This document shows positions 4,078 to 47,413 of a stretch of 64,000 nucleotides of DNA, piece after piece (the first letter of the stretch is position 1; every line of letters starts with the position of its first letter). This stretch comes from Candidatus Omnitrophota bacterium (GTDB lineage: Bacteria; Omnitrophota; Gorgyraeia; Gygaellales; UBA12090). Both the position numbers and the translations under genes were made by a program. The notes under the pieces are model-generated. The model ran no database searches. It had not been told where the DNA came from and was given only the letters and a program-made list of their open reading frames with translations. The stretch covers positions 52,018 through 116,017 of the forward strand of contig JAUSCZ010000033.1 of assembly GCA_030674475.1 (NCBI GenBank), in the 5' to 3' direction.

Positions 4078-4128
4078 AAATTCGAAAAATATTACCATTT
4101 TTTTAACTTTTATGATATACTTTCTCCT

Positions 4129-4506
4129 ATGGCTAAGAAGATATTGATAGCGGATGATGATCCCGCGGTTTCCCAGACCTTAAAAACAGCTTTGGAAAGA
4201 AGCGGTTATGAGGCTGACATAGCCGCCAACGGCGAGGAATGTCTGCAGAAGGTTTTGATAAATAAGCCGGATTTACTGTTATTGGATATTATGATGCCGC
4301 GGATGGACGGATTTTCTTTTTTGGTGGCCATCAAAGAGTTAAGGGCTTTAACCGGGAGCGCGCCCCAGATGCCGGTGATGGTGATTACCGGCAAAGATAA
4401 TGAAGTAAACCGGAGCTTGATGACCCATGAGGATATTAAGGATTACATCTTAAAGCCGTTTGATCTGAAAGAGCTTTTAAGCAAGATTAAGAAAACCTTA
4501 GAGTGA
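4129..4506 (+). CDS. single-domain response regulator (CheY-like receiver)
   Basis: DDD...LLLLDIMMP...K receiver signature; 125 aa. Confidence 0.8.
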   Translation: MAKKILIADDDPAVSQTLKTALERSGYEADIAANGEECLQKVLINKPDLLLLDIMMPRMDGFSFLVAIKELRALTGSAPQMPVMVITGKDNEVNRSLMTHEDIKDYILKPFDLKELLSKIKKTLE

Positions 4507-4542
4507 TTGCCGGTCTGAGAATAATTTTTGCCTGTTCCCCTT

Positions 4543-4572
4543 GACAAATTAAAATTTTGTGTTATACTTTAA
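4543..4572 (+). promoter_or_regulatory. sigma70-like promoter (TTGACA, 16 bp spacer, extended -10 TGtTATACT)
   Basis: Near-consensus hexamers read directly from the sequence. Confidence 0.55.
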
Positions 4573-4674
4573 TTAGAAATTTGCACTTTGACAATTAAAC
4601 AAGAAATACCATTTGTCCCGCAGAAAAGCGGGATCCCGCTAAAGTGTTAAAATACCAAAGCGGGAAAAAAGGCA

Positions 4675-4760
4675 AATTATCCGCAAGGATAAGACGCAAA
4701 GCTTCCGGTCCCTCGATGCTAAAGTAAGGGATAGCGGAGCTACCAAAGGGTGAAAGCACT
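4675..4760 (+). promoter_or_regulatory. candidate c-di-GMP-I (GEMM) riboswitch aptamer
   Basis: GCAAGG...GACGCAAAGCttCCGGtCC...AGCGGaGcUACC matches the GEMM hallmarks (GACGCAAAGC, GG.C, AGC.GGG.UACC) recalled from the Vc2 aptamer. Sits between a promoter and a terminator. Confidence 0.5.
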
Positions 4761-4765
4761 AATTA

Positions 4766-4799
4766 ACCCTAAAAAATAAGCCTTTAGGGTTTTTTATTG
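4766..4799 (+). terminator. rho-independent terminator (ccctaaa / tttaggg stem + T-run); likely expression platform of the riboswitch
   Basis: 7 bp GC-containing stem followed by TTTTTTATT. Confidence 0.6.
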
Positions 4800-5007
4800 C
4801 CGTTTAAAGAAGAAGATTTCAAAGCCCTTACGGAAAGTTTGCCTTGTGATTCGGTAACTTTAAGTCTGTAAGGGCTTTTTGTTTGAATCTAACCTACCAG
4901 CCACGGTAAGTTTTTTCAATATAGTTATCGCTAATTGGAGAGGAAAGTCTATTCCCCTGGATAAAGCGGTAATTATATTGAAAAGGGGTTAGCCCCGGGA
5001 GGAGAAA

Positions 5008-5286
5008 ATGAAAAAAGATGTAAGTACTCATAGGGTGGTAACCTTTTTGACCAGGGAAGAGCTGGAATTTTTGGATAAACTGGAGAAAGATATGATGTTT
5101 TCTACCGGCAGGCATCTCTCGCGCTCCCAGATTCTTCAGGATATGGCTGAGCTTTTGTCTAAGACCACGATGAACGCGATAGGGATAAAGAGTGATGATG
5201 AGCTCAAAAAGAAAATACAGGAAGCCATATCCAAAATGAACCAACAGGATAAAGAAAAAAATCCCCAGGATAAAAGTGAGGTGTAG
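5008..5286 (+). CDS. small hypothetical protein, possible ribbon-helix-helix DNA-binding protein
   Basis: GGGAGGAG RBS. N-terminus VVTFLTREELEFLDKL resembles the RHH beta-strand/helix. Confidence 0.45.
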   Translation: MKKDVSTHRVVTFLTREELEFLDKLEKDMMFSTGRHLSRSQILQDMAELLSKTTMNAIGIKSDDELKKKIQEAISKMNQQDKEKNPQDKSEV

Positions 5287-5287
5287 A

Positions 5288-5482
5288 ATGAATATCTATC
5301 CGAATAATTTAAAACTGCGGGAACTCTTTACCAAGGGCGGGGTGTTGCTTTTTAATATTTATCGGCCCGAAGCTGTCTATAAAGGCGAGATAACATTATT
5401 ACCCGTGGTGGATTGTTTTCAGAAGCGGGTTGTGCATATAAGGGAATATCTGTATAAGGAAAATGATGGAGAGGAGGAGTAA
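5288..5482 (+). CDS. small hypothetical protein (64 aa from the internal ATG)
   Basis: ORF with GTGAGGTG upstream; no recognisable domain. Confidence 0.3.
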   Translation: MNIYPNNLKLRELFTKGGVLLFNIYRPEAVYKGEITLLPVVDCFQKRVVHIREYLYKENDGEEE

Positions 5483-5484
5483 AG

Positions 5485-6519: not shown

Positions 6520-6663
6520 GGAGGTTCAAGGCGTTGATTCTTTGGATAAGGTAAAGGCTTAAAGATGAATAGAGAGGCTGTTATCTGAAAATGGTATCAG
6601 CCTCTTTTGTTTGTGGATTTTGCTATTGCAAAATCCAGGTTTATGCGTTAATATGATGGTTAT

Positions 6664-7861: not shown

Positions 7862-7936
7862 CGGGGCGTGGCTCAGTTTGGCTAGAGCACTTGAATGGGG
7901 TTCAAGAGGTCACAGGTTCAAGTCCTGTCGCCCCGA
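7862..7936 (+). tRNA. tRNA-Pro (anticodon GGG)
   Basis: Manual cloverleaf: acceptor CGGGGCG/CGCCCCG, D-arm GCTC..GAGC, anticodon stem CTTGA/TCAAG with loop ATGGGGT, T-arm ACAGG TTCAAGT CCTGT, discriminator A. Confidence 0.85.
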
Positions 7937-8020
7937 CTAAAATATTATCACGCGAAGGACTTGAACAAAAGAGGAGTTTGAGGGGAAAAGATGATTTTCC
8001 CCTCAAGAGACGCTTCTTTG
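7916..8020 (+). repeat. direct repeat copy 1 (tRNA-Pro 3' 21 nt + 84 nt downstream)
   Basis: Identical, with one mismatch, to 8103-8207. Confidence 0.9.
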
Positions 8021-8102
8021 ATAAAGCTGCGGGGGTGACAGCGAAGCCCTGATGACACATCGGGGCTGAGCGTCAGAGGGGGCGGGGAGCCCCCTATGAA
8101 AA

Positions 8103-8207
8103 GTTCAAGTCCTGTCGCCCCGACTAAAATATTATCACGCGAAGGACTTGAACAAAAGAGGAGTTTGAGGGGAAAAGATGATTTTCCCCTCAAGAAACGC
8201 TTCTTTG
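8103..8207 (+). repeat. direct repeat copy 2 (duplicate tRNA-Pro 3' end + downstream hairpin)
   Basis: ttcaagtcctgtcgccccgact... repeated 187 bp downstream of copy 1. Confidence 0.9.
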
Positions 8208-8652: not shown

Positions 8653-9957
8653 TTGAGTATCGCTATGGATAAGATTAATGTGGGATTAATTGGTTTTGGA
8701 ACGGTAGGTGAGGGCGTGGTCAGGGCATTGCTTACCAGGGAAAAGTTCCTGAAAGAGAAGGTTGGCGCGGGCCTGGTTTTAAAAGCCGTCTGCGATAAGG
8801 ATATCCGGCGTCCGCGTGAGATAAAGGTAAAATCGGGTATTTTAACCACGGATATAAATAGGATTTTAAATGATTCGGATATCCGGATTGTGGTTGAGCT
8901 TATCGGGGGGATACATCCGGCCAAGGAATTTATTTTGGAGGCTTTTAAGCGGGGTAAGCATGTGGTTACCGCTAACAAGGCCCTTTTGGCTGAGTGCGGT
9001 GAAGAGATTTTCCAGGCGGCCAGAAACTACAAGGTTGACCTTTATTTTGAGGCTTCAGTGGGAGGGGGGATTCCGATTATCAAGGCCCTGAGAGAGTCTT
9101 TGGGGGCTAACCATATTGATACCGTGCTGGGAATCGTCAATGGGACATCTAATTATATTCTTACCTCAATGGAAAAGGATGGCTTAAGTTTCAATCAGGC
9201 CCTTTTAGAGGCTAAGAAAAAAGGCTATGCCGAGAAAAACTCAGGCCTAGACATTAAAGGTTTTGACTCCGCGCATAAGCTGGCGATTTTGGCTTTGCTG
9301 GGCTTCGGCAAGAGCGTGAACATAAAAGATATTTATGTGGAGGGAATCGAAGATATCTCTTTAAGCGATATTGAATACGCCCGGGATTTTGGTTATGTGA
9401 TTAAGTTATTAGCTATTGCCAAGAATGTCCGCGGCCAGCTTGAGGTGAGGGTGCATCCCACACTTTTATCCAAAGAGCATCTGCTTTCTAATGTCAGCGG
9501 CGTCTATAATGCTATCTATGTGCACGGAGATTACGCGGGAGGAACGCTTTTCTACGGCAGGGGCGCGGGTTCACGCCCCGCGGCAAGCTCGGTGCTGGGG
9601 GATATAATTGATGTAGCCAGAAACATAAAGAGTGGTTCTGTGGGCCGCGTGCCGGTGTATACCGCGGATAAGACGATTAAGAATCTGCGTCCGATCAGCG
9701 AGATCGAAACCCGCTACTATCTTAGGCTTTCGGTTATTGACCGTCCGGGCGGTTTAGCCAGGATTGCCGATATTCTAGGCCGGCAGGGAATTTCTATCGC
9801 TTCGGTGACTCAAAAAGAAAGGCAGCAGGCCAGGATGGTTCCGGTAGTGATGATGACCCACGACGCCAGGGAAAAGAATATGCGCCTGGCTCTGGATGAG
9901 ATTGACAGACTTGACGCGGTTAAGAAAAAAACCGTGGCCATCAGGGTTGAGCGATAG
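8653..9957 (+). CDS. hom: homoserine dehydrogenase
   Basis: GLIGFGTVGEGV NAD-binding motif, central catalytic domain, C-terminal ACT domain. Confidence 0.9.
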   Translation: MSIAMDKINVGLIGFGTVGEGVVRALLTREKFLKEKVGAGLVLKAVCDKDIRRPREIKVKSGILTTDINRILNDSDIRIVVELIGGIHPAKEFILEAFKRGKHVVTANKALLAECGEEIFQAARNYKVDLYFEASVGGGIPIIKALRESLGANHIDTVLGIVNGTSNYILTSMEKDGLSFNQALLEAKKKGYAEKNSGLDIKGFDSAHKLAILALLGFGKSVNIKDIYVEGIEDISLSDIEYARDFGYVIKLLAIAKNVRGQLEVRVHPTLLSKEHLLSNVSGVYNAIYVHGDYAGGTLFYGRGAGSRPAASSVLGDIIDVARNIKSGSVGRVPVYTADKTIKNLRPISEIETRYYLRLSVIDRPGGLARIADILGRQGISIASVTQKERQQARMVPVVMMTHDAREKNMRLALDEIDRLDAVKKKTVAIRVER

Positions 9958-10120
9958 TGCGCTGTGAATTAATTATTAATATGACAGCGCACAGAGCAAT
10001 TGAGCAATAGAAAATAGAACAATAGAGAAAATAAAAGCTCAATTGCGGTCTAATGCTCAATTGTTCTATTGTTCAAAACAGCAGTTTTGCTATCAATAAC
10101 TAATTTCACAGAGCATTAGA

Positions 10121-11886: not shown

Positions 11887-13080
11887 TTGAAATATCTTAT
11901 CTTAGTCGGGGATGGGATGGGGGATTATCCTATTGAGAGCCTGGGGAATAAAACTCCTCTGGAATACGCCAAGACCCCGAATATGGATTTCCTGGCCACA
12001 AACGGTAAGCTGGGATTAGTCAGAACTATCCCCGAGGGCCTGTCCCCGGCCTCGGATGTGGCTAACCTGGCCATATTCGGCTATGATCCTAAGGTTTACT
12101 ATTCCGGAAGAGGGCCGTTTGAGGCGGCTAATTTAGGGGTCGCGCTTAAGGATGATGAGATTGCCTTTCGTTGTAATTTAATTACGGCGAGCGCGGATAA
12201 ACTCATTGACTACAGCGCCGGCCATATTTCCACCAAAGAGGCTAAGGTCTTGATAGAATTCTTAGATGAGAAATTAGGCTCTCCGGAGCTGAAATTTTAT
12301 CCCGGGGTAAGTTATCGGCACCTGGTAGTGGTCAAGGCTAAAGGCTTAACAGCGCGCTGTGTCCCCCCGCACGATATTACCGGAAGAGAATTCAAAAAAT
12401 ACCTGCCTAAGGGCCCGGATGCCCAATTTTTGGTATCTCTGATGCAGGAATCGGCGAAGATTTTAGCCGAGCACGAGGTAAATCAGGTCAGGATTGACCT
12501 GAAAGAAAACCCGGCGAATATGATTTGGCTCTGGGGTCAGGGAAAAAGGCCGTCCCTGGTCAGCCTTAAAGACAAATATGGAATAAGCGGCTCAGTTATT
12601 TCAGCGGTGGACTTGATCAAAGGGATTGGCCGCGTAGCCGGTTTAGAGGTTATAAATGTTCCCGGGGCCACCGGTTATTATGATACTAATTACCTGGGGA
12701 AAGCCGAGGCGGCAATCGCTGCGTTTAAAACTAAAGATTTAGTGTATCTGCATGTGGAGGCCCCGGACGAGGCCTCCCATAACGGCAATATGCAGGAGAA
12801 GATTTTGGCCATTGAGCGATTTGACCAATTAGTGGTAGGAACAATCTTAGAGGCTTTAAAAAAGAAAGAGGATTTTAGAATCCTTCTTCTGCCTGACCAC
12901 GCCACACCCCTGGCCCTGCGCACCCATACCGCTGACAGCGTTTGTTTCGCGCTGTACGGAAAGGGTATTTCCGCCTGCGGTCTAGAGGGATTTAACGAGG
13001 CCCAGGCCAAGAAAAGCGGCATATTCCTGGACCAGGCCCATATCCTGATGGATAGGCTGATTAAGGAAGAGGAAATATAG
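11887..13080 (+). CDS. cofactor-independent phosphoglycerate mutase (ApgM) family; probable non-canonical homoserine kinase
   Basis: N-terminal LILVGDGMGD and C-terminal LLPDHATP metal-binding motifs of the ApgM/PF01676 family. Embedded between thrC and lysC. Confidence 0.7.
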   Translation: MKYLILVGDGMGDYPIESLGNKTPLEYAKTPNMDFLATNGKLGLVRTIPEGLSPASDVANLAIFGYDPKVYYSGRGPFEAANLGVALKDDEIAFRCNLITASADKLIDYSAGHISTKEAKVLIEFLDEKLGSPELKFYPGVSYRHLVVVKAKGLTARCVPPHDITGREFKKYLPKGPDAQFLVSLMQESAKILAEHEVNQVRIDLKENPANMIWLWGQGKRPSLVSLKDKYGISGSVISAVDLIKGIGRVAGLEVINVPGATGYYDTNYLGKAEAAIAAFKTKDLVYLHVEAPDEASHNGNMQEKILAIERFDQLVVGTILEALKKKEDFRILLLPDHATPLALRTHTADSVCFALYGKGISACGLEGFNEAQAKKSGIFLDQAHILMDRLIKEEEI

Positions 13081-13088
13081 ATTTGGGT

Positions 13089-13135
13089 GCGATAAATCGC
13101 ACCGCTACGGTAGCGGCGCCATTTATGGCGCTAAT
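13089..13135 (+). repeat. triple-hairpin intergenic element, copy 1 (gcgataaatcgc / ccgctacggtagcgg / gcgccatttatggcgc)
   Basis: Near-identical 47 nt copy at 47349-47395. Both lie immediately 5' of an RBS. Confidence 0.85.
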
Positions 13136-13153
13136 GTGCTAGGAGGTAATTGC

Positions 13154-14422
13154 GTGGGAAGACTGATTGTGCAGAAATACGGCGGCTCTTCGGTAGCTAA
13201 TCCTGAAAGAATCAAGAATGTGGCTCGCCGGGTGGTTGACTATAAGAAAAAAGGCAATGATTTGGTGGTGGTGGTTTCGGCCTTAGGAGACACTACCGAC
13301 GAGTTGATTGAGCTGGCCGCTAAAATTTCAGACAATCCTCCGGAAAGGGAGATGGATATGCTGCTTTCTACCGGTGAGCAGATTTCAGTTGCCCTTCTGG
13401 CTATGGCCATTCAGGAATTGGGGTTTGAGGCAATTTCTTTAACCGGCTCGCAGGTGGGCATTATTACCGATACCGTGCACACCAAGGCCCGGATTGTCAA
13501 AATTGAGGCCCAGAAACTGCGCCAGGAACTAAAAAAAGGCAGGATTGTGATTGTCGCCGGTTTCCAGGGGATGACCCCGGATCAGGATATTACCACCCTG
13601 GGAAGAGGGGGCTCGGATTTAAGCGCGGTGGCCCTGGCTAAGACCCTGGGGGCTGATGAGTGCGAGATCTATACCGATGTTGAGGGGATATTTACCGCTG
13701 ATCCGCGCGTTGAGCCCAGGGCGCGTAAACTTGAAAACATCACTTATGATGAGATGTTGGAGATGGCCTCATTAGGCGCCCAGGTAATGCAGGCGCGCTC
13801 AATCGAGGTGGCTAAGAAATTTGATGTGCCGATACATGTCAGGTCCTCATTTTCACGAAAACGAGGGACAATGATTATCAGGGAGGTAAAGAATATGGAA
13901 GATGTTTTGGTTACCGGGGTAACCTTAAATAAGAATGAGTCTAAAATTACTGTGTGCGATGTCCCGGATAAGCCCGGTATCGCCGCCAGGATTTTTACTC
14001 AGCTTTCCGAGGGCGGCATCAATGTGGATATGATTGTGCAGAATGTCTCGCATACCAAGCAGACTGATATTTCTTTTACTGTTCCTAAAAACGACGGGGC
14101 CAGGGCAATCAGGTTGACTAAAAAGGCGGCCAGCGGCTTGGGCTATGGGAAGCCCAACCACGGCCCTCTGGCCAGCGGCTTGGGAGAGCTTCAGGTGTTG
14201 GAGGATTCGGATATCGCTAGGATTTCCATAGTCGGGGTAGGGATGAAAACTCATTCCGGGGTAGCCGCTAAAATGTTTGAAACCCTGGCTGAGGAGAAGA
14301 TAAATATTGAGATGATTTCTACCTCCGAGATCAGCATCTCTTGTATCATCAAGAAAAAATCCGCCGAAATCGCCCTCAGGGCCCTGCATCATAAATTCGG
14401 CTTGGATAAAATAAATAAATAA
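13154..14422 (+). CDS. lysC: aspartate kinase with ACT domains
   Basis: IVQKYGGSS start motif; AGGAGG RBS before GTG 13154 (the ORF is open from 13136); two C-terminal ACT repeats. Confidence 0.9.
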   Translation: MGRLIVQKYGGSSVANPERIKNVARRVVDYKKKGNDLVVVVSALGDTTDELIELAAKISDNPPEREMDMLLSTGEQISVALLAMAIQELGFEAISLTGSQVGIITDTVHTKARIVKIEAQKLRQELKKGRIVIVAGFQGMTPDQDITTLGRGGSDLSAVALAKTLGADECEIYTDVEGIFTADPRVEPRARKLENITYDEMLEMASLGAQVMQARSIEVAKKFDVPIHVRSSFSRKRGTMIIREVKNMEDVLVTGVTLNKNESKITVCDVPDKPGIAARIFTQLSEGGINVDMIVQNVSHTKQTDISFTVPKNDGARAIRLTKKAASGLGYGKPNHGPLASGLGELQVLEDSDIARISIVGVGMKTHSGVAAKMFETLAEEKINIEMISTSEISISCIIKKKSAEIALRALHHKFGLDKINK

Positions 14423-14546
14423 AAGACATCCTACTAATGAGAAAGAAACGGGGATGTCTGATTACAACGATTAAAAGGCAGATTACAGAGATTAAAACAG
14501 GTATAATCTTTATGTTTATCTCTGAAGATTACACCAGAGAGGGACT

Positions 14547-16120: not shown

Positions 16121-18943
16121 ATGATTGAGTTGAATAGCCACTACGAACCTAAAGAGGTTGAGGATAGGATATATGCCTTTTGGCAGGAGCGGAATTTATT
16201 TGCCACCAAGGCCAATCCTGGCAAGAAGCCTTTCTGCATTGTTATCCCTCCGCCTAATGTTACCGGTATCTTGCATATGGGCCATGCCTTGAATAATACC
16301 TATCAGGATATTTTAATCCGCCTGAACCGGATGCGGGGTTTTGAGTCTTTATGGATGTCCGGTACCGACCACGCCGGAATTGCCACCCAGAATGTAGTTG
16401 AGCGTAAGCTGGCCAAGGAAGGCTTAAAGCGCCAGGATTTAGGCCGGGATAAGTTTTTAGAGAGGGTTTGGCAGTGGAAGGAGGAATACGGCTCAACCAT
16501 AATTAAACAGCTGAAGAAATTAGGGTCTTCCTGTGATTGGGAGCGCACCAGATTTACTATGGATGAGGAGTATTCTCAAGCGGTGCGGGAGGTTTTTGTC
16601 AGGCTGTGGGATAAGGGCCTGATTTATCAGGGGGATAGGATCATCAACTGGTGCCCCCGCTGCCAGACCGCCTTATCCGATGAAGAGGCAGTGCATCATG
16701 AAATTAACGGGAATTTGTATTACATAAAATATCCAATTAAGCCGACAGCTGACAGCCGACAGCTGACAGCCGACTATATTGTGGTGGCGACTACCCGGCC
16801 GGAGACAATGCTGGGGGATACGGCGGTGGCGGTTAATTCCAAAGACCGGCGGTATAAAAAACTTATCGGCCAGACGGTTATTTTACCTTTACTTGAGCGG
16901 GAAATTAAAATTATCGCCGATGAATTCGTGGATTCAAAATTCGGCACCGGCGCGGTAAAGGTTACTCCGGCGCATGATCCTAATGATTATGAGATGGGCA
17001 AGCGCCATAATCTGGAATTTATCAACATAATGCATCCGGACGCGCTCTTGAATGTCAATGCCGGGGAATACGCGGGCAGGGACAGGTTTGAGGCCCGGGA
17101 GGCCATAATAGAAGATTTAAGAGCAAGAAAGCTTCTGGAGAAGATAGAACCGCATACACATTCGGTCGGTCATTGTTACCGCTGCAATACCATAGTTGAA
17201 CCGTATTTATCCCGGCAGTGGTTTGTGAAGATGAAACCCTTGGCTGAACCGGCAATTAAGGCAGTTAAAGACGGCACAATTAAATTCTACCCTAAGCGCT
17301 GGACGAAGGTATATTTGAATTGGATGGAAAACATCCGCGATTGGTGTATCTCCCGGCAGATTTGGTGGGGACATCGGCTTCCTGTTTATTATTGCAAGAA
17401 ATGTCAGGAAACAGGAAGCCTAAATTCAAAAGTCAAAAGTCAAAACTCAAAATCCGCGTTTAATGGGATAACAGTATCAAAAGATAAATTAGATAAATGC
17501 CCTGTGTGCGGGTCGGGGGATATTTATCAGGATGAAGATGTCTTGGATACCTGGTTTTCTTCCTGGCTGTGGCCTTTTGCCACCTTTGGCTGGCCGTTTC
17601 AGCCCTCAGTCGAAAGCCGAAAGCCGAAAGCCGAAAGCCATAACCCGCAAGCTGACTTAGATTATTTTTATCCCACCTCGGTTTTAGTTACTGCTCCGGA
17701 GATAATTTTTTTCTGGGTGGCCCGGATGATTATGGCTGGTTTTGAGTTTATGGGTAAAGAACCGTTTCGGGATGTCTATATCCATGGCACGGTCCGGGAT
17801 ATCGAAGGTAAAAAGATGTCAAAATCATTAGGCAATATCATTGACCCCTTAAATATTATCGCTCAATACGGCAGTGATGCCTTAAGATTCAGCCTGATGT
17901 CTTTAACCTCCGTGGGTCAGGATGTCTATCTATCGGAGCAGAAATTTGAACTGGGCAGGAATTTTGCCAATAAGCTTTGGAACGCCTCGCGTTTTTCATT
18001 GATGAATCTGGATTTGAAGGTGGTGAATACGGATCTTTGCCTGTTTTTTAAAAAAGAAAAATTGGAATTGCCGGAGCGCTGGATTTTGAGCCGATTTTAC
18101 TCGATGCTTCAATCTTTGAATAAAGCTTTGGACAGCTATAACTTTAATCAGGCCTCTGGTATTCTTTATGAATTTACCTGGCATGAATTCTGCGATTGGT
18201 ATTTAGAATTGGCCAAGCCAATTCTAGTAAACAGAGAACCCTTCGACTCCGCTCAGGGCAGGCAGAGTGCAGAGAACAGAAATACCCAGATAGTTTTATA
18301 TAAAGTTTTAGAAAAGACCCTGAGGTGCCTGCATCCTTTTATGCCGTTTATTACTGAGGAAATCTGGCAGAAATTGATAGTAGGGGCAGGTTCAGAACCT
18401 GCCCCTACCGAAAGCATTATGACTCAGCCCTGGCCGCACATCCAGAAGCAGATGATTGATAAAAAGGCCGAAGGCGCTATGCGAATAGCCATTGAGGTTA
18501 TTACCGCGATCCGGAATCTCAAGGCCCAAATGAAACTCACTTCGGCTCAAATCGTCAAGGTCAGCTTGTTAACCAAAGACCAGAAGACTCAAAAGATTTT
18601 GGATCAGGTCTCTAAATATATTATCAATCTGGCTAAGCTAGAAGGGTTGAATATCGGTTCGGAAGATTTGACGCGTAAAAGAGGCGTCAGCGCTATTGCC
18701 GGGAACATCCAGGTGTTCTTGGAACTGGAGGGGTTGATTGATATAGAAAAAGAGATAGAAAAACTAAATAAAGAAATAGAAAGCTTAAGTAAGGATGTAA
18801 AGGCTAAGGAAGCCCGCTTAGGCAATAAGGAGTTTAATGAGAAGGCCCCTCCTGAGATTGTGGAAAAAGAGAAGGAATTATTAGCCGCGGGTAAAGAAAA
18901 GTTAACTCACCTGAATAAAATCATCCATGAGCTTAAAAAATAA
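16121..18943 (+). CDS. valS: valine--tRNA ligase
   Basis: HMGH and KMSKS motifs, C-terminal coiled coil. Contains three in-frame short tandem repeat insertions. Confidence 0.95.
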   Translation: MIELNSHYEPKEVEDRIYAFWQERNLFATKANPGKKPFCIVIPPPNVTGILHMGHALNNTYQDILIRLNRMRGFESLWMSGTDHAGIATQNVVERKLAKEGLKRQDLGRDKFLERVWQWKEEYGSTIIKQLKKLGSSCDWERTRFTMDEEYSQAVREVFVRLWDKGLIYQGDRIINWCPRCQTALSDEEAVHHEINGNLYYIKYPIKPTADSRQLTADYIVVATTRPETMLGDTAVAVNSKDRRYKKLIGQTVILPLLEREIKIIADEFVDSKFGTGAVKVTPAHDPNDYEMGKRHNLEFINIMHPDALLNVNAGEYAGRDRFEAREAIIEDLRARKLLEKIEPHTHSVGHCYRCNTIVEPYLSRQWFVKMKPLAEPAIKAVKDGTIKFYPKRWTKVYLNWMENIRDWCISRQIWWGHRLPVYYCKKCQETGSLNSKVKSQNSKSAFNGITVSKDKLDKCPVCGSGDIYQDEDVLDTWFSSWLWPFATFGWPFQPSVESRKPKAESHNPQADLDYFYPTSVLVTAPEIIFFWVARMIMAGFEFMGKEPFRDVYIHGTVRDIEGKKMSKSLGNIIDPLNIIAQYGSDALRFSLMSLTSVGQDVYLSEQKFELGRNFANKLWNASRFSLMNLDLKVVNTDLCLFFKKEKLELPERWILSRFYSMLQSLNKALDSYNFNQASGILYEFTWHEFCDWYLELAKPILVNREPFDSAQGRQSAENRNTQIVLYKVLEKTLRCLHPFMPFITEEIWQKLIVGAGSEPAPTESIMTQPWPHIQKQMIDKKAEGAMRIAIEVITAIRNLKAQMKLTSAQIVKVSLLTKDQKTQKILDQVSKYIINLAKLEGLNIGSEDLTRKRGVSAIAGNIQVFLELEGLIDIEKEIEKLNKEIESLSKDVKAKEARLGNKEFNEKAPPEIVEKEKELLAAGKEKLTHLNKIIHELKK
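16741..16774. repeat. tandem repeat (cagctga/cagccga 14-mer x ~2.4) inside valS
   Basis: Direct reading; encodes TADSRQLTAD. Confidence 0.9.
17422..17452. repeat. heptamer tandem repeat (aaattca/aaagtca/aaagtca/aaactca) inside valS
   Basis: Direct reading; encodes LNSKVKSQNSKS. Confidence 0.9.
17611..17638. repeat. heptamer tandem repeat (cgaaagc)x4 inside valS
   Basis: Direct reading; encodes ESRKPKAES. Confidence 0.9.
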
Positions 18944-24651: not shown

Positions 24652-24972
24652 ATGAGAGGTGTTATAAAAGGAGTATTGGCGGAAGAATTGGAAAATTCTC
24701 TTCGCATGAAGAAGGAATACGAAGGAGCTTTGAGGAATTTGCCTAAAGGGTGTCTTGCGGTAAGAAAAATACGAGGCCATGAGTATTGTTACCTGGCAGA
24801 AAGAGTGGATAAGAAAGTAAAGTATATTTACAAAGGTAAACTATCCGCAGAAGAAAAGAAAAGGTATGAAGAGGCCAAAGAATTAAGGGCTAAATACAGG
24901 AAATTATTGTCTCAAGTCAAAAAGCAAATAAGATTCTTAAGGAGTTCTCTGCGTGGAAAAGAAGCAGTCTGA
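24652..24972 (+). CDS. small basic protein, paralog A (putative regulator/antitoxin-like partner of the nucleotidyltransferase)
   Basis: ~60% identical to the 27362-27679 product; operator palindrome upstream. Confidence 0.6.
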   Translation: MRGVIKGVLAEELENSLRMKKEYEGALRNLPKGCLAVRKIRGHEYCYLAERVDKKVKYIYKGKLSAEEKKRYEEAKELRAKYRKLLSQVKKQIRFLRSSLRGKEAV

Positions 24973-25256
24973 TTTATGCCTTGAAATCTTAAGGAGGCTC
25001 CATAAGGCCGGTATCTTGGATGATTTAATCCTTATAGGCAGTTGGTGCGTATATTTCTATAGAGAATATTCCAGCAATGTGTCCTACATGGATCAAACCA
25101 CTATGCGAAATCAGTCATTCAGGACAAAGAAAGACAGAAAACTTGAACTTGTTTTCAACCGAAAAAGAAATTTCCAGGGGATGGCGTAAGATTGCCGTTA
25201 AGGTGGTTGATATTTTTGGTAATGATACGATAAGAGTAATTAAGGTGAATATATAA
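24953..25256 (+). pseudogene. decayed fusion: N-terminal ~45 codons of nucleotidyltransferase paralog A joined to a 3' remnant of a type III mod gene
   Basis: MEKKQSDLCLEIL...LIGSWCVYFY matches the start of the 27660 protein. SFRTKKDRKLEL and, in another frame, RKIAVKVVDIFGNDTIRVIKVNI* match the C-terminus of the 29779-32064 Mod. Confidence 0.7.
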
Positions 25257-25299
25257 GTTTTTATATGGCCAATATATGATAAAAGGGGGGGGGTAATGC

Positions 25300-26991
25300 A
25301 TGAAAAAAAATCTTTTGGATACAAAAACAGCTTCATGGGGGGAGTTAATTAAGAATGGAAGAACCTTTATGGTCCCAAGATTTCAAAGAGATTATTCGTG
25401 GGAGGAAGAGCAATGGGATGATCTTTGGTATGACTTGGTTAATTTAGAGGAAGAAGATTTTCATTATATGGGGTATTTAGTATTACAAAATAGCCCCACG
25501 AATGAATATCTGGTTATCGACGGACAGCAGAGATTGACGACTTTAAGTATTATTGCTTTAGCGGTGATTCAACACATCGCGGAATTGATTGAGAAAGGTA
25601 AGGACCATAAAAACAACGAAGAGCGCAAGAAATTGTTGATGGACTCGTTTCTTGGATATAAAGATCCGGCTTCTTTGGTAGCCAAGAGCAAATTAACGCT
25701 TAATCGTAATAATAATGATTTTTATCAAAGTTACTTATTGCGTTTTAGAAAACCAACGAGTAAAAGTAAACTCAAGCCTTCTGAAAAACTTCTTATTAAC
25801 GCTGTCGAATATTTTTATGAAAAGATAAAGTTTAAGTTCGGTCAGGATATTTCAGGTGAGAAATTGGCTGATTTTCTTGATAAGAAAACGGCGGATAAAT
25901 TTATATTCACGTTTATTACTGTTGATAATGATTTGAATGCTTACAAAGTATTTGAAACACTCAATTCAAGGGGGGTGAGGCTATCTCCCACGGATTTGTT
26001 AAAAAATTATTTGTTTATGGTGGCGGCTCAAAAAGGCGAAACTGATATCGATCAAGCTGAAAGACAATGGCAAAGTATTAATAATATTTTAGGTGGAATA
26101 GAGCTTACCACATATCTAAGGCATTTTTGGAATTCGAGAAATATGATCGCCAGAAAGCAGAATTTATTTAAAGTTGTTAAGAATTCAATTACTGACGCGG
26201 ATCAGGCCTTCGCTTTATTGGATGAACTTGAAAATAACGCGCAACTTTACGCGGCTTTTTCTCAGCCAGAAGATGAGCTTTGGAAACAGGCTGAGCAAAG
26301 CGAATATATTAGACAATTAAAATTATTCGGCGTGACCCAGTGTTATCCTCTTTTGTTGGCGGCTTATAAGAAGTTTGACCCGAATGAATACGCTCGTTTA
26401 TTGAGATGCTGTTGTGTGATTGCTTTTCGATACAATGTGATTGGCGGGCTAAATCCCAATAAGCTGGAAGATGAATACAGCAAAACGGCTCAGGATGTTT
26501 ATGCCGGCACGCTGAAAAACGCGCGGGAAATATTTCATAACCTGAAATCGGTTTATGTCATTGATGAAGAGTTTGAAAGCTCATTCGCCGCGAAAAGTAT
26601 TACCACCAAGGGAAAGGGCGCGAAATTAGTCAGATATATCCTTTTCTCATTGGAAAATCAGATAAGCAATAAAAAATATGATTTTAGTGATAGCTCCGTA
26701 ACTATCGAGCATATATTACCGGAAAATCCTTCTCAAAGCTGGGAGTCAAATTTTACTATTGAAGAGCAAATTCAATTTGTATTTCGTTTAGGCAATTACG
26801 CGCTTTTGGAAGAATCAAAAAATAAAATGTGTCAAAACGACTTTTATCCGACAAAGAAAGAAATTTACAAAACAAGCAGTTATAAAATAACAGCCCAAGA
26901 TAGCGTATGCGATGAATGGAACCCCGAAAGAATTTCAGAGAGACAAAAGAAGTTGGCAAAATACGCTAAAACTGTCTGGAAATTTGAGTGA
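25300..26991 (+). CDS. GmrSD-like type IV (modification-dependent) restriction enzyme, DUF262 + DUF1524
   Basis: N-terminal DUF262 (ParB-like) motifs (...VIDGQQRLTT), C-terminal His-Me/HNH-like SVTIEHILPEN. Confidence 0.75.
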   Translation: MKKNLLDTKTASWGELIKNGRTFMVPRFQRDYSWEEEQWDDLWYDLVNLEEEDFHYMGYLVLQNSPTNEYLVIDGQQRLTTLSIIALAVIQHIAELIEKGKDHKNNEERKKLLMDSFLGYKDPASLVAKSKLTLNRNNNDFYQSYLLRFRKPTSKSKLKPSEKLLINAVEYFYEKIKFKFGQDISGEKLADFLDKKTADKFIFTFITVDNDLNAYKVFETLNSRGVRLSPTDLLKNYLFMVAAQKGETDIDQAERQWQSINNILGGIELTTYLRHFWNSRNMIARKQNLFKVVKNSITDADQAFALLDELENNAQLYAAFSQPEDELWKQAEQSEYIRQLKLFGVTQCYPLLLAAYKKFDPNEYARLLRCCCVIAFRYNVIGGLNPNKLEDEYSKTAQDVYAGTLKNAREIFHNLKSVYVIDEEFESSFAAKSITTKGKGAKLVRYILFSLENQISNKKYDFSDSSVTIEHILPENPSQSWESNFTIEEQIQFVFRLGNYALLEESKNKMCQNDFYPTKKEIYKTSSYKITAQDSVCDEWNPERISERQKKLAKYAKTVWKFE

Positions 26992-26994
26992 TTT

Positions 26995-27222
26995 ATGGCG
27001 CCGCGCGCGCAAGGTTATGAAAAACTATTCCCGCCTTTTGTGCCGGAGCTTAGGAAGCGGGTTAAGGAGTGGCGGGATAAGGGCTACGAGGGGGCGAGCG
27101 CGACATCAAGGGCTCTTTTAAGCTGGCGGTTCAAAGAAGACCTCTTGCTTATGGAATATAAGCTTACAGTGAGAGAAAGACGAGATAATGTCTACTGTCC
27201 GGGTCTGACCCCTAAAACCTAA
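26995..27222 (+). pseudogene. 5' fragment of a type III res gene (duplicate of the 33113 gene N-terminus)
   Basis: GYEKLFPPFVPELRKRVKEWRDKGYEGASA; ~90% nt identity to 33205-33345, then diverges and stops. Confidence 0.7.
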
Positions 27223-27361
27223 AACCGCTTGAAAGTTACCATACTTAGTATGACATTCCTGCATTTGTATGGTAACTTTTTTGTTTGACAATGGTTGTCA
27301 TACAATATATACTATTATATAGTTTGTATGGTAACTAATTCAATCGAACGGAGAGTTTAAT

Positions 27362-27679
27362 ATGGGAGTCATAAAAGGAGTGCTTAAAGAAGAACTCGAG
27401 AATTCTATACGCATGAAAAGCGACTATGAGCGTGAATTGGCAAAGCTGCCTAAAGGCAGCCTCATTAAGAAAAAGGTTAAGGGGCATGAGTACTATTATC
27501 TTTTGTTGCGGGAGAAAGGGAAGGTAAGATTCATCTATAGAGGGAAAGTGTCTGATGAAGAAATAAAAAAATACAAAGAAGCAAAAGAATACAGGGCTAA
27601 GTACAGAAAATTATTATCTCAGGTAAAAAAACAAATTAGATTCTTAAGGAGCACTCTGCGTGGAAAAGAATCAATATGA
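27362..27679 (+). CDS. small basic protein, paralog B
   Basis: Paralog of the 24652 product; upstream inverted repeats agttaccatac / gtatggtaact. Confidence 0.6.
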   Translation: MGVIKGVLKEELENSIRMKSDYERELAKLPKGSLIKKKVKGHEYYYLLLREKGKVRFIYRGKVSDEEIKKYKEAKEYRAKYRKLLSQVKKQIRFLRSTLRGKESI

Positions 27680-28352
27680 ACTATGCATTAAGGTTCTAAA
27701 AAGATTTGATAAGGCCGGAGTTCTAAAAGACGTTATTCTTATAGGTAGTTGGTGTATTCCATTCTATAAAGAATATTTTGCGGGCATAAAGTATATCTCG
27801 ACCATTAAGACAAGAGATGTAGATTTCTTGATTCCCAACCCGCGCGGAATCAGGGCTAATGTGAATATCCCAGAATTATTAAAAGACTTAGGATTTATCA
27901 TTGGTTATAGGGGAGCAAAAGGATATATTAAATTAGAACATCCTGATCTGGTAGTGGAATTTTTATCTCCAGAGAAAGGAAAAGGCACCGATAGGCCAAT
28001 CCCCTTACCGAAGTTAGGCGTTAACGCGGTTGCTCTGAGATTTTTGAGTTTGCTTACTGATAATGTAATTAAGGCTAAAGTTGAAGATTTTGAAGTCTTA
28101 TTACCTCATCCTGCCAATTTCGCCCTCCACAAATTAATAATTTTCCAGCGTAGACTCAAAGAAGATAAAGCAATAAAAGACAGAAATGCGGCGGTAGAAA
28201 TTCTTAAAGCTTTGATAACTAAGGGCGAAGCGGTAACTATCAAGCACGTTTTTAATTCCATGCTTCCAAAATGGCAGAAAAAAGTTATAAAAGGATTGCA
28301 GGAAGCCAAAGAAAGAGAGATTATTCTTATACTACAAAATGCCGGAAAATAG
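27660..28352 (+). CDS. Pol-beta superfamily nucleotidyltransferase, paralog B (AbiEii/DUF1814-like toxin candidate)
   Basis: LIGSWCIPFY...TRDVDFLIPN (hGS ... DxD). Start overlaps the small protein. Confidence 0.55.
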   Translation: MEKNQYELCIKVLKRFDKAGVLKDVILIGSWCIPFYKEYFAGIKYISTIKTRDVDFLIPNPRGIRANVNIPELLKDLGFIIGYRGAKGYIKLEHPDLVVEFLSPEKGKGTDRPIPLPKLGVNAVALRFLSLLTDNVIKAKVEDFEVLLPHPANFALHKLIIFQRRLKEDKAIKDRNAAVEILKALITKGEAVTIKHVFNSMLPKWQKKVIKGLQEAKEREIILILQNAGK

Positions 28353-28451
28353 TCTATGTAGTGTATGTATAAAGGAATAAGGGGTTATGCCTCAAAACTC
28401 CAAAATAGTCCTTGACGTTGGAATTGATAAGAGATTGGATAAATTGTAAAT

Positions 28452-29732
28452 TTGAGGTCTGACCCTATTAGCTCATTGACTGTTCACATAGGAGAATTAA
28501 ATGTGGCCATATATTTTTTCAATCAATACAGTGCTTTAATTAATGAATTTAACATAGACAATGATAAGGTGGGGCAACAAAAAAAGAAGATTTTTGTTTC
28601 GATGTGGTATGGAGAAGAAAATGATGGCACTAAGCAAGAACAATCGGATCTTTATGACGAATATTTTAAAGGAGCAATCGAGAAAAAAGGAATCTACAAA
28701 GTAATTTCTACAAAGATAAAAGATAATGATAAGGATATTGATATTGATTTTGGTCTGAAATATTTGCTTGAAACCACGATAGCTGATGATACTAGAAAAG
28801 ATGATATAAGTTTTGACATTTTCAGAAAGATTATCGAAGCCAGTCTAATTATTTGTGATGTTACGCCGATTGGAAAAATTCAGGATAAAGAAAAGCCGGT
28901 ATTTTGCGATAATGTCATGGCAGAATTAGGATTAAGCTTAGCATGGAAACTACCCGAACAAGTTATCATCCTTTTTAATATAGAAAATAGTTTTAAATTC
29001 TCCTTGAACGAGCTTCCATTCAATATCAAAGGCTATTTTGTCCACAGATTAGATTTCAATAATCAAAATTTTAAAAAAGACTTATTAAAGATTATTAAAG
29101 TAAGATTTGAAGGCATAAATGAAAAAAAGAGTATTTTTATAAAAAATATAAAGAGCAAGCTTGATCAGGATTCTATTAGCGCTTTAGCGGGACGAAATGG
29201 ATTGATGTTTTTTGATCAGAAAGTAGATGTGCATACGATTCGCTATTTATTATCTCTTGGTATTATACGAACCGAACAATTTCCATCAAGACCTATTAGT
29301 TTTGGATATTGTTTGACCGAAATGGGCAAAGTTGTTCTTACTCAACTCGGTATACAGTTATTTCCAGAAGAATTCATTGATTTTTATTTAGTGCGTTACT
29401 GGGAGGGATATTCTGCTGCGAAGGGTTATGCCCCGCACAATTTTGAAGAAAAGCAGAAAGCTTTCGAAAAAGCTTATGGAATTAAAGATTGGAAAGATAG
29501 TCTACGAATTTTTGTAGAACAAATACTGCAAGAGGTTAAAAAAGTAATTGAAGATGCTCCGACAGTAAAAAGAGGAATAGAAGAGCGTTCTAAGGAAAAA
29601 CAAAATGGATATAGTCATGATTTAGAGATTTTTCCCTATTTCGTTGATTCCTATCCCTTTGAGTTGGTGAATTCAACAGTTTCAAAATGGTTGAAGTTGA
29701 CGCATAATAAGAAGAAAAATGAATCAGCATGA
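28452..29732 (+). CDS. hypothetical protein with N-terminal nucleoside 2-deoxyribosyltransferase/SLOG-like domain
   Basis: IFVSMWYG ... LIICDVTP ... NVMAELGLSLAW...VIIL resembles the N-deoxyribosyltransferase/TIR-like Rossmann signature. Start uncertain: TTG at 28452 or GTG at 28503. Confidence 0.4.
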   Translation: MRSDPISSLTVHIGELNVAIYFFNQYSALINEFNIDNDKVGQQKKKIFVSMWYGEENDGTKQEQSDLYDEYFKGAIEKKGIYKVISTKIKDNDKDIDIDFGLKYLLETTIADDTRKDDISFDIFRKIIEASLIICDVTPIGKIQDKEKPVFCDNVMAELGLSLAWKLPEQVIILFNIENSFKFSLNELPFNIKGYFVHRLDFNNQNFKKDLLKIIKVRFEGINEKKSIFIKNIKSKLDQDSISALAGRNGLMFFDQKVDVHTIRYLLSLGIIRTEQFPSRPISFGYCLTEMGKVVLTQLGIQLFPEEFIDFYLVRYWEGYSAAKGYAPHNFEEKQKAFEKAYGIKDWKDSLRIFVEQILQEVKKVIEDAPTVKRGIEERSKEKQNGYSHDLEIFPYFVDSYPFELVNSTVSKWLKLTHNKKKNESA

Positions 29733-29778
29733 ACCAATTTAAGCGTCTCTACAATGTTACCCTCGGCTGATCCAGGAT

Positions 29779-32064
29779 TTGTTTTTTAAAGGTAAAAAGA
29801 TAATGAGATTATCGGATAACGAAAAAAGAGACGCGATAAAGTTGCTTCAGGAAGGGAAGCCTTTGCCTGATAAATACCGCTTTCTTTTGTTTGCTGATGA
29901 CCGGGAGGTTGAGCTGGTGTGGAATGGGAAGACGCAGGAAGTTTGCAATCTGGTTTTGCCCTTTCAGACTATTGAGCATATTGATGAGCCGAGGAGTGAG
30001 AGAATAAAAAAGGGCGGTTATGTTGGGGATTTGTTTGATCCCTCCGGGCGTCAGATTCGGGGATGGACGAATAAGCTGATATGGGGAGATAACAAGCTGA
30101 TTTTATCGTCTTTAAAGAATGGGCCAATGAGGCGGGAAATTGAAAAACAGGGCGGTTTAAAGCTGATCTATATTGACCCGCCGTTTGACGTGGGAGCGGA
30201 TTTTTCAATGAATGTTGAGATCGGAGACGAATCCTTCACCAAAAAGCCGTCAGTTATTGAAGAGGTAGCTTATCGGGATACCTGGGGGCAAGGTGCGGAT
30301 AGCTTTATTGCTATGATTTACGAGCGGTTGAAGCTCATGCACGGACTTTTGGCGGATGACGGCAGTATTTATGTGCATTGTGATACACGTGTTAGTTCAT
30401 ATATGAAATTAGTACTAGATGATGTGTTTTCCAAAGAAAATTTCATCAATGAAATCATTTGGAAAAGATCAACTGCCCATAGCGACAATAGAGCTTATGG
30501 AAATCTGCATGATACGATTTTCTATTACACAAAAAGCGATGATGCAGTCTTTAATCCCGTTTATGATCCCTATTCGGAAGACTACATTCAAACCTATTAT
30601 CGGCATGATGACGCTAAGGGTAAATTCTTGGATCGAGATTTGTCTGCAAAAGGTTTATCAGGCGGAGGCTATCAGTATGAATGGAAAGGTAAAAATGGAA
30701 TTTGGCGTTGTCCAAAGACCACTATGGAGCGATACGAAGCCGAGGATAAAATATATTACACTTCCAACGGTACACCACGATATAAGCAATATCTAAATGA
30801 GATGCCGGGTATTTCTGCGCAAGACATTTGGACCAATATATTTGCGGTTAATTCACAAGCCAAAGAGCGAATAGACTATCCAACACAAAAACCAGAGACT
30901 CTTCTTGAGCGTATTATCAAAGCGTCTTCCAACGAAGGCGATCTTGTTGCTGATTTCTTTTGTGGTTCCGGCACGACTTTAGCAGTTGCGGAAAAATTGG
31001 GGCGGAAATGGATTGGTGCAGATCTCGGACGTTTTGCTATTCATACATCCCGTAAGCGGTTAATTCAGGTTCAGCGCGAGATGAAAAAAGAGGGTAAGAA
31101 TTTTAGGGCGTTTGAGATTCTTAACCTCGGCAAATATGAGCGGGAGCAATATGTCAATGTTGATGTGGATATCCGGGAGCAGGAAAAACAGCAGATTTTA
31201 GAAAACAAAGAAAAGCAGTTTATTGAACTGATCCTTTCTGCCTATAACGCCCAAGCTGTGGATTCTTACAATTCGTTTGTCGGTAAGAAGCGTGACCGGC
31301 TGGTTGCGGTCGGTCCTGTTGATACGCCGGTATCAGCCGCTTTTGTTGATCAGGCGATTAAGGAAGCTAAGGAGAAAGGAATCACTAAATTTGATGTTCT
31401 CGGTTTTGATTATGAGATGGGGATTGATTTCGCGCAACTTAGCCGCCAGGGCGTTGATGTGCAGTTTAAGGTTATTCCCCGGGAAGTTTTTGACCGCCGC
31501 GCGGTGGAAAAAGGGCAGGTGAAATTCTACGATGTTGCCTACATTGAAGTGAAGCCGATCATCAAAGGGCGGGGGAATAATAAAACGATAGCGGTTGAAC
31601 TGTGCGATTTCAGCGTATTTTATAATCAGGACAGCGTTGAAGAGATAGAGGGATCGCTTAAAGAAGGTTCAAGTAAGATCGTAATTGAGAATGGACAAGT
31701 TATTAAGGTATCCAAAGACAAAAAGACAGCGGTGGTAACTAAAGAAGTTTTGACCAAGAAATGGACGGACTGGGTGGATTACTGGTCGGTTGATTTTAAT
31801 ATGGAGAACAGAAAAGAGATTGTCCGGGTGCCGGTAAATCCCCCCTTGCTCCCCTTTTCCAAAGGGGGGTTGGAATTTGAAGAAAAATGGACTGGCGGGT
31901 ATATATTTGAAAATGAGTGGCAGTCATTCAGGACAAAAAAAGAGAGAAAACTTGAGCTTATATCTGCTGAGAAAGAAGTTTCCCTGGGGCGGCGTAAGAT
32001 TGCCGTTAAGGTGGTTGATATTTTCGGCAATGATACGACAAGAGTAATTGAGGTTAATATATGA
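29779..32064 (+). CDS. mod: type III restriction-modification DNA N6-adenine methyltransferase (Mod)
   Basis: Motif IV IYIDPPF and motif I DFFCGSGTT in the beta-class order. Start may be the ATG at 29803. Confidence 0.85.
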   Translation: MFFKGKKIMRLSDNEKRDAIKLLQEGKPLPDKYRFLLFADDREVELVWNGKTQEVCNLVLPFQTIEHIDEPRSERIKKGGYVGDLFDPSGRQIRGWTNKLIWGDNKLILSSLKNGPMRREIEKQGGLKLIYIDPPFDVGADFSMNVEIGDESFTKKPSVIEEVAYRDTWGQGADSFIAMIYERLKLMHGLLADDGSIYVHCDTRVSSYMKLVLDDVFSKENFINEIIWKRSTAHSDNRAYGNLHDTIFYYTKSDDAVFNPVYDPYSEDYIQTYYRHDDAKGKFLDRDLSAKGLSGGGYQYEWKGKNGIWRCPKTTMERYEAEDKIYYTSNGTPRYKQYLNEMPGISAQDIWTNIFAVNSQAKERIDYPTQKPETLLERIIKASSNEGDLVADFFCGSGTTLAVAEKLGRKWIGADLGRFAIHTSRKRLIQVQREMKKEGKNFRAFEILNLGKYEREQYVNVDVDIREQEKQQILENKEKQFIELILSAYNAQAVDSYNSFVGKKRDRLVAVGPVDTPVSAAFVDQAIKEAKEKGITKFDVLGFDYEMGIDFAQLSRQGVDVQFKVIPREVFDRRAVEKGQVKFYDVAYIEVKPIIKGRGNNKTIAVELCDFSVFYNQDSVEEIEGSLKEGSSKIVIENGQVIKVSKDKKTAVVTKEVLTKKWTDWVDYWSVDFNMENRKEIVRVPVNPPLLPFSKGGLEFEEKWTGGYIFENEWQSFRTKKERKLELISAEKEVSLGRRKIAVKVVDIFGNDTTRVIEVNI

Positions 32065-32165
32065 ATCAATTAAGCAATGACCATTTCGAGGATATCCTCG
32101 AAATGGTAGATAGCAGAAAACATAAAAAAGATTACGAGCAAAAAAAGCAAGAGGTTATTATTTAG

Positions 32166-32963: not shown

Positions 32964-33112
32964 AATTTTAAGAGGTTTTTTTGGAGTCCTGGGCCCTGGG
33001 TCAATGCCCCGTGTGACATCAGTCACAGGATACGTGACCCAGTAACTCCAAAAATAGGATATCACAAATCTCGAGTTTGTCAAGGTTTTAGATAGATAGA
33101 GAGAGAAATAAT

Positions 33113-41433: not shown

Positions 41434-41464
41434 AAATTGCCATAATTCAGCAAGGCAATAAAAA

Positions 41465-47345: not shown

Positions 47346-47348
47346 GGC

Positions 47349-47395: not shown

Positions 47396-47413
47396 ACGCG
47401 AGGGAGATAATAA

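Follow-up and report, generated by a model that had tools for sequence, protein, structure and literature searches.

Two copies of one short hairpin cluster stand directly upstream of the genes for aspartate kinase (lysC) and an acyl-CoA dehydrogenase in a 64,000-nt stretch of Candidatus Omnitrophota DNA (the window in what follows), which raises the question of whether the cluster is a regulatory structure shared by two operons or a small piece of DNA that was copied into both. The initial annotation had described it as three adjacent palindromes at 13089-13135 and, with two substitutions, at 47349-47395; the substitutions are 13100 C/T and 13109 G/A. This description was borne out by the sequence itself, by a search of the window for the 43-nt core with up to three mismatches (matches only at 13089-13131 and 47349-47391, and 0 in 100 shuffles) and by BLAST of the element region against the window, which returned copy 2 at E = 1.7e-17. 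The extent of 47 nt had to be corrected, since homology starts 3 nt earlier and includes a third difference (13088 T/C), and the best-folding register is slightly shifted. At the other end, a repeat finder stretched the common segment to 13086-13143 and 47346-47403 at 90% identity; strong identity stops abruptly after ...GGCGCTAAT and only RBS-like resemblance lies beyond, for which reason the unit was set at 50 nt. The two copies, at 13086-13135 and 47346-47395, are both on the + strand and differ at 3 of 50 positions. Their homology runs from GGTGCG to GCTAAT at 94-98% identity with sharp ends, and the flanks are unrelated apart from the RBS.

The consensus of the 50-nt unit is GGTGCGATAAATCGCACC / GCTACRGTAGC / GGCGCCATTTATGGCGCT / AAT, which is read as three hairpins and a short tail: H1 (13086-13103 in copy 1, 47346-47363 in copy 2), H2 (13104-13114 and 47364-47374), H3 (13115-13132 and 47375-47392) and AAT (13133-13135 and 47393-47395). 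The whole is a nested palindrome, in which two inverted short palindromes sharing the core GCSATAAATSGC surround a third, GCTACNGTAGC. The outer modules GCGATAAATCGC, with an 'AA' centre, and GCCATTTATGGC, with a 'TT' centre, carry that core in opposite orientation, and a BLAST-type self-comparison in the window matched the element to its own reverse complement at 86% over 35 nt. The outer modules differ at positions 3 and 10 of their 12-mers, and these two positions are complementary within each module, which explains why the small hairpins are each perfect while the long hairpin formed by the whole element is mismatched. A GTAG/CTAC motif is also present, with GTAG inside the central stem. 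Assemblies from ENA, JGI and NCBI, independent of one another, contain the element at both loci, and this excludes an assembly artefact.

As + strand RNA, the element was predicted by ViennaRNA to form three abutting hairpins with 7, 4 and 7 bp (H1, GGUGCGA/UCGCACC; H2, GCUA/UAGC with a 3-nt loop; H3, GGCGCCA/UGGCGCU) at -25.9 kcal/mol. A single long hairpin of 19 pairs with small internal loops was predicted at -25.5 kcal/mol, and the two conformers are thus nearly isoenergetic, 0.4 kcal/mol apart. Compared with dinucleotide shuffles the folding gave z = -4.0 to -5.0, and the minus strand and the single-stranded DNA of the element fold comparably to the + strand RNA. Since spacers between co-directional genes in the window are often structured (several with z below -3.5), structure alone is not unusual here, and only the repetition is. 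In the predicted folds the RBS is unpaired, with no sequestration of the RBS or anti-Shine-Dalgarno pairing by the element.

Gene annotation placed each copy between the stop codon of the upstream gene and the RBS of the downstream gene, and confirmed lysC and the acyl-CoA dehydrogenase gene as the downstream neighbors, both as first proposed. At site 1 the upstream gene encodes a protein of the cofactor-independent phosphoglycerate mutase family (apgM-type, 'proposed homoserine kinase'; 11887-13080, + strand, stop TAG 13078-13080), and lysC follows at 13154-14422 (+ strand) with an AGGAGG RBS at 13141-13146. The open reading frame list starts lysC at GTG 13136; we place the likely start at GTG 13154 because of the position of this RBS and of the N-terminus MGRLIVQKYGG that is common to relatives. 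At site 2 a GNAT N-acetyltransferase gene (46896-47345, + strand, stop TGA 47343-47345) precedes the acyl-CoA dehydrogenase gene (47414-48565, + strand, ATG start, RBS GAGGGAG at 47400-47406), and the ETF genes come next. The best homologues of both downstream genes are in Candidatus Omnitrophota MAGs, and the acyl-CoA dehydrogenase has a 100%-identical database match (P0121). The element begins 5 nt after the stop codon at site 1 and abuts it (0 nt) at site 2, whereas the distance from its end to the start codon is exactly 18 nt at both. Its orientation relative to transcription is the same at both sites, on the sense strand of co-directional operons. The upstream genes end alike, in ..ATTAAGGAAGAGGAAATATAG and ..ATTAAGAAAATATGA (..ATTAAG..AAATAT..), and both downstream flanks carry a purine-rich RBS. 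No consistent direct repeat that could be a target-site duplication was found in the flanks, which read ATTTG|..|GTGCT at site 1 and TATGA|..|ACGCG at site 2. Direct repeats of 3-4 nt (GTGC..GTGC) were considered as such and dropped, as the 5' GGTGC is common to both sites and is thus element sequence. A promoter-like TTGCCA-N18-GAAAAT ends 5 nt upstream of copy 2, and no convincing -10/-35 hexamers occur inside the element.

The copy number was addressed at three scales. An 18-mer spanning H2 and H3, blind to the G>A variant of site 1 described below, was scanned over 185,579 species genomes and gave one true match, the site 2 orthologue, besides 44 chance matches in GC-rich genomes. A 20-mer consisting of H3 plus TAAT was scanned over JGI metagenomes and gave 10 loci, namely 4 at site 1, 4 at site 2 and 2 unrelated hairpins matched by chance; by this 20-mer, samples that contain the organism have the two sites and no further locus. 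A covariance model of the four sequence variants, run without filters, detected only the two copies in the 64-kb window and only known orthologues in 180 kb of Omnitrophota loci. The initial annotation had named absence elsewhere in the genome as a finding that would tell against it; with the same two loci only returned by exact patterns, and by the covariance model within the 64-kb window, the evidence points towards such absence. Within the genomes, metagenomes and loci scanned, the element is a two-locus repeat and not a high-copy REP, although diverged or partial copies may lie in the remainder of the genome. Pattern searches of viral, plasmid and phage collections returned no related sequence, at most hairpins matched by chance, and a phage or plasmid origin was rejected on these grounds.

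One further hairpin in the window may be a solo relative of H3. The sequence CCCCGCCATAAATGGCGGGG at 60622-60641 forms a perfect 20-nt hairpin and shares the 14-mer CGCCATAAATGGCG with H3 (BLAST E = 0.014; covariance model 18.8 bits, E about 0.03), and the putative kinship is only marginally above chance. The hairpin lies in a divergent intergenic region, flanked by a minus-strand gene for an ABC-transporter ATPase and by a GT4 glycosyltransferase gene whose likely ATG, at 60660, follows 18 nt downstream. The core GCSATAAATSGC has four exact matches in the window and one with one mismatch; one of the exact matches, at 60626, is outside the elements, and by our estimate about 0.03 exact matches are expected by chance.

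Comparison with relatives suggests that the element is young. A sister lineage ~94% identical in nucleotide sequence, which includes L002 (UBA12090), L046, L047 and L051-L060, has both copies. The site 1 element is present in L046, L047 and L054-L058 (~94% nt identity), with L046 and L047 belonging to the same sister lineage as L054-58, and the site 2 element is present in L002, L051, L053, L057 and L060. At site 1 it is absent from L048 (83% aa), which has an unrelated A-rich spacer of 34 nt, and from L085 and L086 (84% aa), which have no spacer. At site 2 it is missing in L078-80 (acyl-CoA dehydrogenase gene 93.4% identical in nucleotides), L081 (80% nt, with an unrelated 57-nt spacer) and L083 (76% nt, with a spacer of 12 nt). 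Overall, relatives at 84-74% identity have unrelated spacers or none at both junctions, with gene order unchanged. Since these relatives are without the element, it is probably not the ancestral leader of either downstream gene, and an ancient regulator of lysC or acyl-CoA dehydrogenase is unlikely.

The sister lineage also allowed the direction of some changes to be read. Its site 1 copy has one G>A substitution that turns the G-U pair at the base of H3 into A-U, with loss of the long-hairpin alternative. Its site 2 copy (L002) keeps GGTGCG...CGC, with T at the position matching 13088, so that the two site 2 changes of the window are derived; in predicted folds these derived changes favor the long hairpin. 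The balance of conformers is thus predicted to have shifted in opposite directions in the two strains. The inferred ancestral copies differ solely at the loop base of H2.

In the sister strains (L046 3939-3985, L047 1289-1335, also L054-L058) 47 extra nt (cagtgcattcagactgttaaattaatttctatatgttaacggagcac) separate copy 1 from the lysC RBS, and this insert had no match in the window or in the other loci compared; gene callers give lysC in these strains as 434-448 aa, compared with ~420 aa. In the window 124 nt separate lysC from cimA (14423-14546), with GATTACA/GATTAAAA repeats and TATAAT among them, while this spacer measures 9 nt in L047 (2698-2706) and 4 nt in L048 (11222-11225). The C-terminus of LysC likewise varies between strains, from GLDKINK* to a 19-residue extension. 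Operon-internal spacers are therefore very plastic in this lineage. Heptamer runs of AAAATTC/AAAAGTC also occur inside open reading frames of the window, at 725-762 (the start of a putative lipoprotein) and at 17418-17455, where the run is an insertion in the leucyl-tRNA synthetase frame that encodes a KFKSQKSKLKI-like sequence, and the A-rich spacer upstream of lysC in L048 is a periodic sequence similar to them.

At site 2, L078-80 have a wholly different spacer of 188 nt around a ~130-nt palindromic repeat made of an A-rich arm and a T-rich arm. In L078 (and identically in L079) the repeat occurs at 9841-9970 and 12011-12140 with 80% identity between the copies, the second of which occupies the etfB|etfA junction two genes downstream and has a 36-aa open reading frame called over it. 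A gene for a Y1 (HUH) transposase of 225 aa lies 8 kb from this repeat (L078 19591-20268; L079 17712-18389), with REP-associated tyrosine transposase (REP_Tyr_transpos) as its best NCBIfam match at 58.6 bits, below the cutoff of 80, and it is enclosed by unrelated inverted repeats, TAGACGCTTTA and TAAAGCGTCTA. Because L078 has this different palindromic repeat at both the site 2 and the etfB|etfA junctions, palindromic insertions at operon junctions appear to recur in the clade.

Our leading explanation, which we put forward tentatively and at slightly less than an even chance, is that the element is a low-copy, non-autonomous palindromic insertion of the REPIN/MITE kind that was copied once in a single species-level lineage of Candidatus Omnitrophota. 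This reading follows from the sharp borders, the lack of a target-site duplication, the REPIN-like layout, the restriction to a young lineage and the presence in a sister lineage of a different palindrome together with a Y1 transposase. A single copying event, shortly before the divergence of the two lineages sampled, would have left the sharply bounded unit in a stop-codon/RBS junction of each of two unrelated operons, with no target-site duplication, and it would since have been inherited vertically without further spread. We infer both the way in which it was copied and any effect on RNA. The mover would be a trans-acting enzyme of the HUH/Y1 type (RAYT/IS200-like) acting on the folded single strand. 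In a genome this compact, with ancestral junctions of 0-34 nt, the gap that separates a stop codon from the following RBS would be the only place where an insertion does no harm and so survives, and this would explain the identical placement at the two sites. Once transcribed within a polycistronic mRNA, the element would fold at about -26 kcal/mol without occluding the RBS. Its likeliest effect, if any, would be passive, as a barrier to exonucleolytic decay or a cleavage site for a double-strand-specific nuclease between cistrons. Several observations stand against an insertion. The two known copies are far below typical REP/REPIN populations, and no Y1 transposase/RAYT (Y1_Tnp) gene was found in the 64-kb window. 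The same orientation and the 18-nt spacing are also expected of a functional leader, the low substitution count relative to fourfold-degenerate sites (weaker locally, as described below) suggests constraint, and the element is intact in two lineages despite gain and loss in adjacent spacers.

The likeness to REPINs is close in layout. Published REPINs consist of two inverted REPs with AA/TT centres around a hairpin-forming spacer and measure about 89 nt (PMC3337134), and REPs and REPINs are mobilised by RAYT (Y1/HUH) transposases (Bertels & Rainey; PMC3116915, PMC3337134). The element likewise is extragenic, has two short imperfect inverted palindromes (AA versus TT centres) with a hairpin-forming spacer and can form one long hairpin as a whole, and neither it nor the REPIN has a target-site duplication. 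The element differs in its length (47-50 nt against about 89 nt) and in its abundance, being found at two loci against tens to hundreds, with no spread since the strain split; the window contains no RAYT, and GTAG lies in the central stem and not at the foot of each REP. The REP-like option of the initial annotation thus holds for architecture (inverted palindromes, hairpin-forming spacer, extragenic location) and fails for abundance, as tens to hundreds of copies were not found in the scans. The GTAG/CTAC motif of the element is a REP/REPIN-relevant feature that we take only as a lead.

Bacterial MITEs (Correia, RUP, ERIC/IRU) are small, non-coding, palindromic, intergenic elements that are co-transcribed with their neighbors and show lineage-specific presence or absence. 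The element is like them in all of these respects. It differs in having no clear terminal inverted repeats beyond its internal palindromes, no target-site duplication, a much shorter length and only two copies.

An unlikely but serious alternative is that the element is a cis-acting RNA selected by the host, recently acquired by both operons, and serving either as a processing or stability element (a substrate of RNase III type in its 19-bp form, or a protective 3'/5' hairpin cluster) or as a bistable leader tuning lysC and acyl-CoA dehydrogenase. Its placement speaks for such a role, as both copies share one orientation, that of the sense strand in co-directional operons, as well as the 18-nt distance to the start codon and an unpaired RBS; the conformers are only 0.4 kcal/mol apart, the element was kept in both lineages despite neighboring indels, and the promoter-like sequence before copy 2 means that this copy could be a 5' leader. 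The substitution pattern is also in its favor. Between the window and the sister lineage there are 3 substitutions per 100 nt of element, while divergence at fourfold-degenerate sites is 14-19% in three of the four flanking genes and 4% in the fourth, the N-acetyltransferase gene. The element is thus below the gene-wide fourfold-degenerate rate (binomial P = 3e-5); fourfold divergence is low locally (12/155 in the nearest 150-450 nt), and the probability there is about 0.05 by a Poisson estimate. Comparison of these sites suggests purifying constraint on the element that would be marked relative to gene-wide sites and marginal relative to local ones. Two of the three stem substitutions keep pairing (G-C to G-U and G-U to A-U), whereas the third breaks it under either fold.

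Against this role, the element is missing at these junctions in every more distant relative and in one 93%-identical lineage, and the 47 extra nt between copy 1 and the RBS in the sister strains imply that adjacency to the RBS is not required. No pair changed on both sides in the four sequence variants, the three-hairpin and long-hairpin models are equally supported by them (98.6% and 98.7% of cells paired), and the three stem substitutions single out neither a fold nor a strand as functional. The strains move the conformer balance in opposite directions, and the two downstream genes have no obvious shared physiology. Searches of Rfam gave no family at gathering thresholds and nothing but noise at E up to 10, where the best score of 20 bits fell below the threshold of 87; elsewhere in the window, a c-di-GMP-I-GGC riboswitch aptamer was detected at 4662-4748, exactly at its Rfam gathering threshold (59 bits), within a 1.4-kb stretch (4078-5484) without a large open reading frame. 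The shared cis-regulatory RNA initially suggested is thus unlikely as an ancient regulator, though it may be a recently co-opted one: L048, L085, L078, L081 and L083 lack the element at their orthologous junctions, and it matches no Rfam family and shows no two-sided pair changes. The usual leader of lysC is the lysine riboswitch (L-box), of roughly 180 nt. The element resembles it in position upstream of lysC and differs in being 50 nt long, in matching nothing in Rfam, in also preceding an unrelated gene and in being absent from relatives.

Intercistronic RNA hairpins can set differential mRNA stability or serve as RNase III sites, as exemplified by the E. coli malE-malF REP and the R sites of phage T7. 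The element is similar to these as a predicted stable intercistronic hairpin cluster with no U-tract and a free RBS, whose long conformer has 19 bp; it differs in not being conserved in relatives.

A rather less probable explanation is a one-off ectopic copy, in which gene conversion or template switching would have carried the unit from one junction to the other with no mobility machinery and no function, followed by drift. Exactly two copies were found, with no target-site duplication, and a single base, in the loop of H2, separates the inferred ancestral copies, as would be expected after one recent event; the similar upstream gene ends and the purine-rich RBS would provide microhomology on both sides. 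The homology, however, breaks off abruptly at the borders of the element and does not run out within the tracts of microhomology, and a nested palindrome is itself characteristic of mobile hairpin elements. In a sister lineage the site 2 junction was taken over by another palindromic repeat, and so few substitutions would not be expected in DNA without a function.

Less probable again, and a model only, is a bistable RNA module under host selection, recruited recently to the two operon junctions and alternating between three stacked hairpins and one 19-bp hairpin, in which the switch or a double-strand nuclease would couple decay or translation of the aspartate kinase and acyl-CoA dehydrogenase mRNAs. 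If true, it would be a mobile palindrome caught in the act of turning into a regulator.

We consider it quite improbable that the element is a double-stranded DNA operator, in which H1 and H3, as 18-bp palindromes with centres 29 bp apart, would be bound by a dimeric transcription factor co-regulating lysC, the acyl-CoA dehydrogenase operon and perhaps the divergent promoter at 60.6 kb. The differences between H1 and H3 preserve symmetry, the core GCSATAAATSGC has its exact copy outside the elements, and with one mismatch allowed it gave 7 matches against 1.95 in shuffles. Sites of a regulon share a consensus, though, and not 94-98% identity over 50 nt including spacers, which argues that the identity reflects copying. 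Moreover, the copies are inside operons between stop codon and RBS and not at recognisable promoters, about 180 kb of related loci showed no enrichment of the 12-mer core beyond the elements themselves, and relatives lack the element.

An intrinsic terminator or attenuator separating the upstream and downstream genes, also among the options first proposed, is highly improbable: stable GC-rich hairpins do directly follow the stop codon, but H3 is succeeded by AAUGUGC or AAUACGC with no direct U-tract, the terminator scan did not call the element, the clear terminators of the same window (after groEL; 6520-6663; 4761-4798) do have U-tracts, and the downstream genes have no separate strong promoter. 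Among these terminators, the spacer after groEL (41463-41540) contains two tandem hairpins with perfect stems of 18 bp and 14 bp, each followed by a U-rich stretch (MFE -65.5 kcal/mol, z about -9); its stems are GC-rich and come after a stop codon like those of the element, from which it differs by its U-tracts.

Integron attC sites and island att sites were rejected, as the 34 kb between the copies consist of housekeeping genes and are syntenic with L048, which is without the element. Between the element copies, the region 24813-33336 contains long direct repeats (258 nt at 73%, 129 nt at 91%, 94 nt at 88% and 39 nt at 92% identity) in segments 2.7-6.8 kb apart, which suggest paralogous genes or a duplicated cassette. 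Elsewhere in the window, the last 22 nt of tRNA-Pro(GGG) (7862-7937) and the 83 nt downstream of it are repeated with 99% identity 187 nt further on (7916-8020 and 8103-8207; region 7862-8207); the arrangement resembles either a tandem duplication or the scar of integration/excision at the 3' end of the tRNA.

We class the element as a kind of small palindromic intergenic repeat, specific to one lineage and with two copies, for which a regulatory role is not supported. Only a real RNA function behind the weak sign of constraint would give it greater weight. The element may be useful for thinking about how such elements start out, although it opens no new mechanism, and it is useful for the annotation of MAGs, as gene callers extended lysC to 448 aa beside it in the sister strains. 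No REP- or MITE-like elements of Omnitrophota were described in the literature searched, and if the reading as an insertion holds, a very small palindromic insertion with two copies would be added to the catalogue of REP- and MITE-like elements. Taken with the unrelated palindrome at the same junction in a sister lineage, it would mean that the stop-codon/RBS junctions of compact operons are recurrent landing sites for such insertions.
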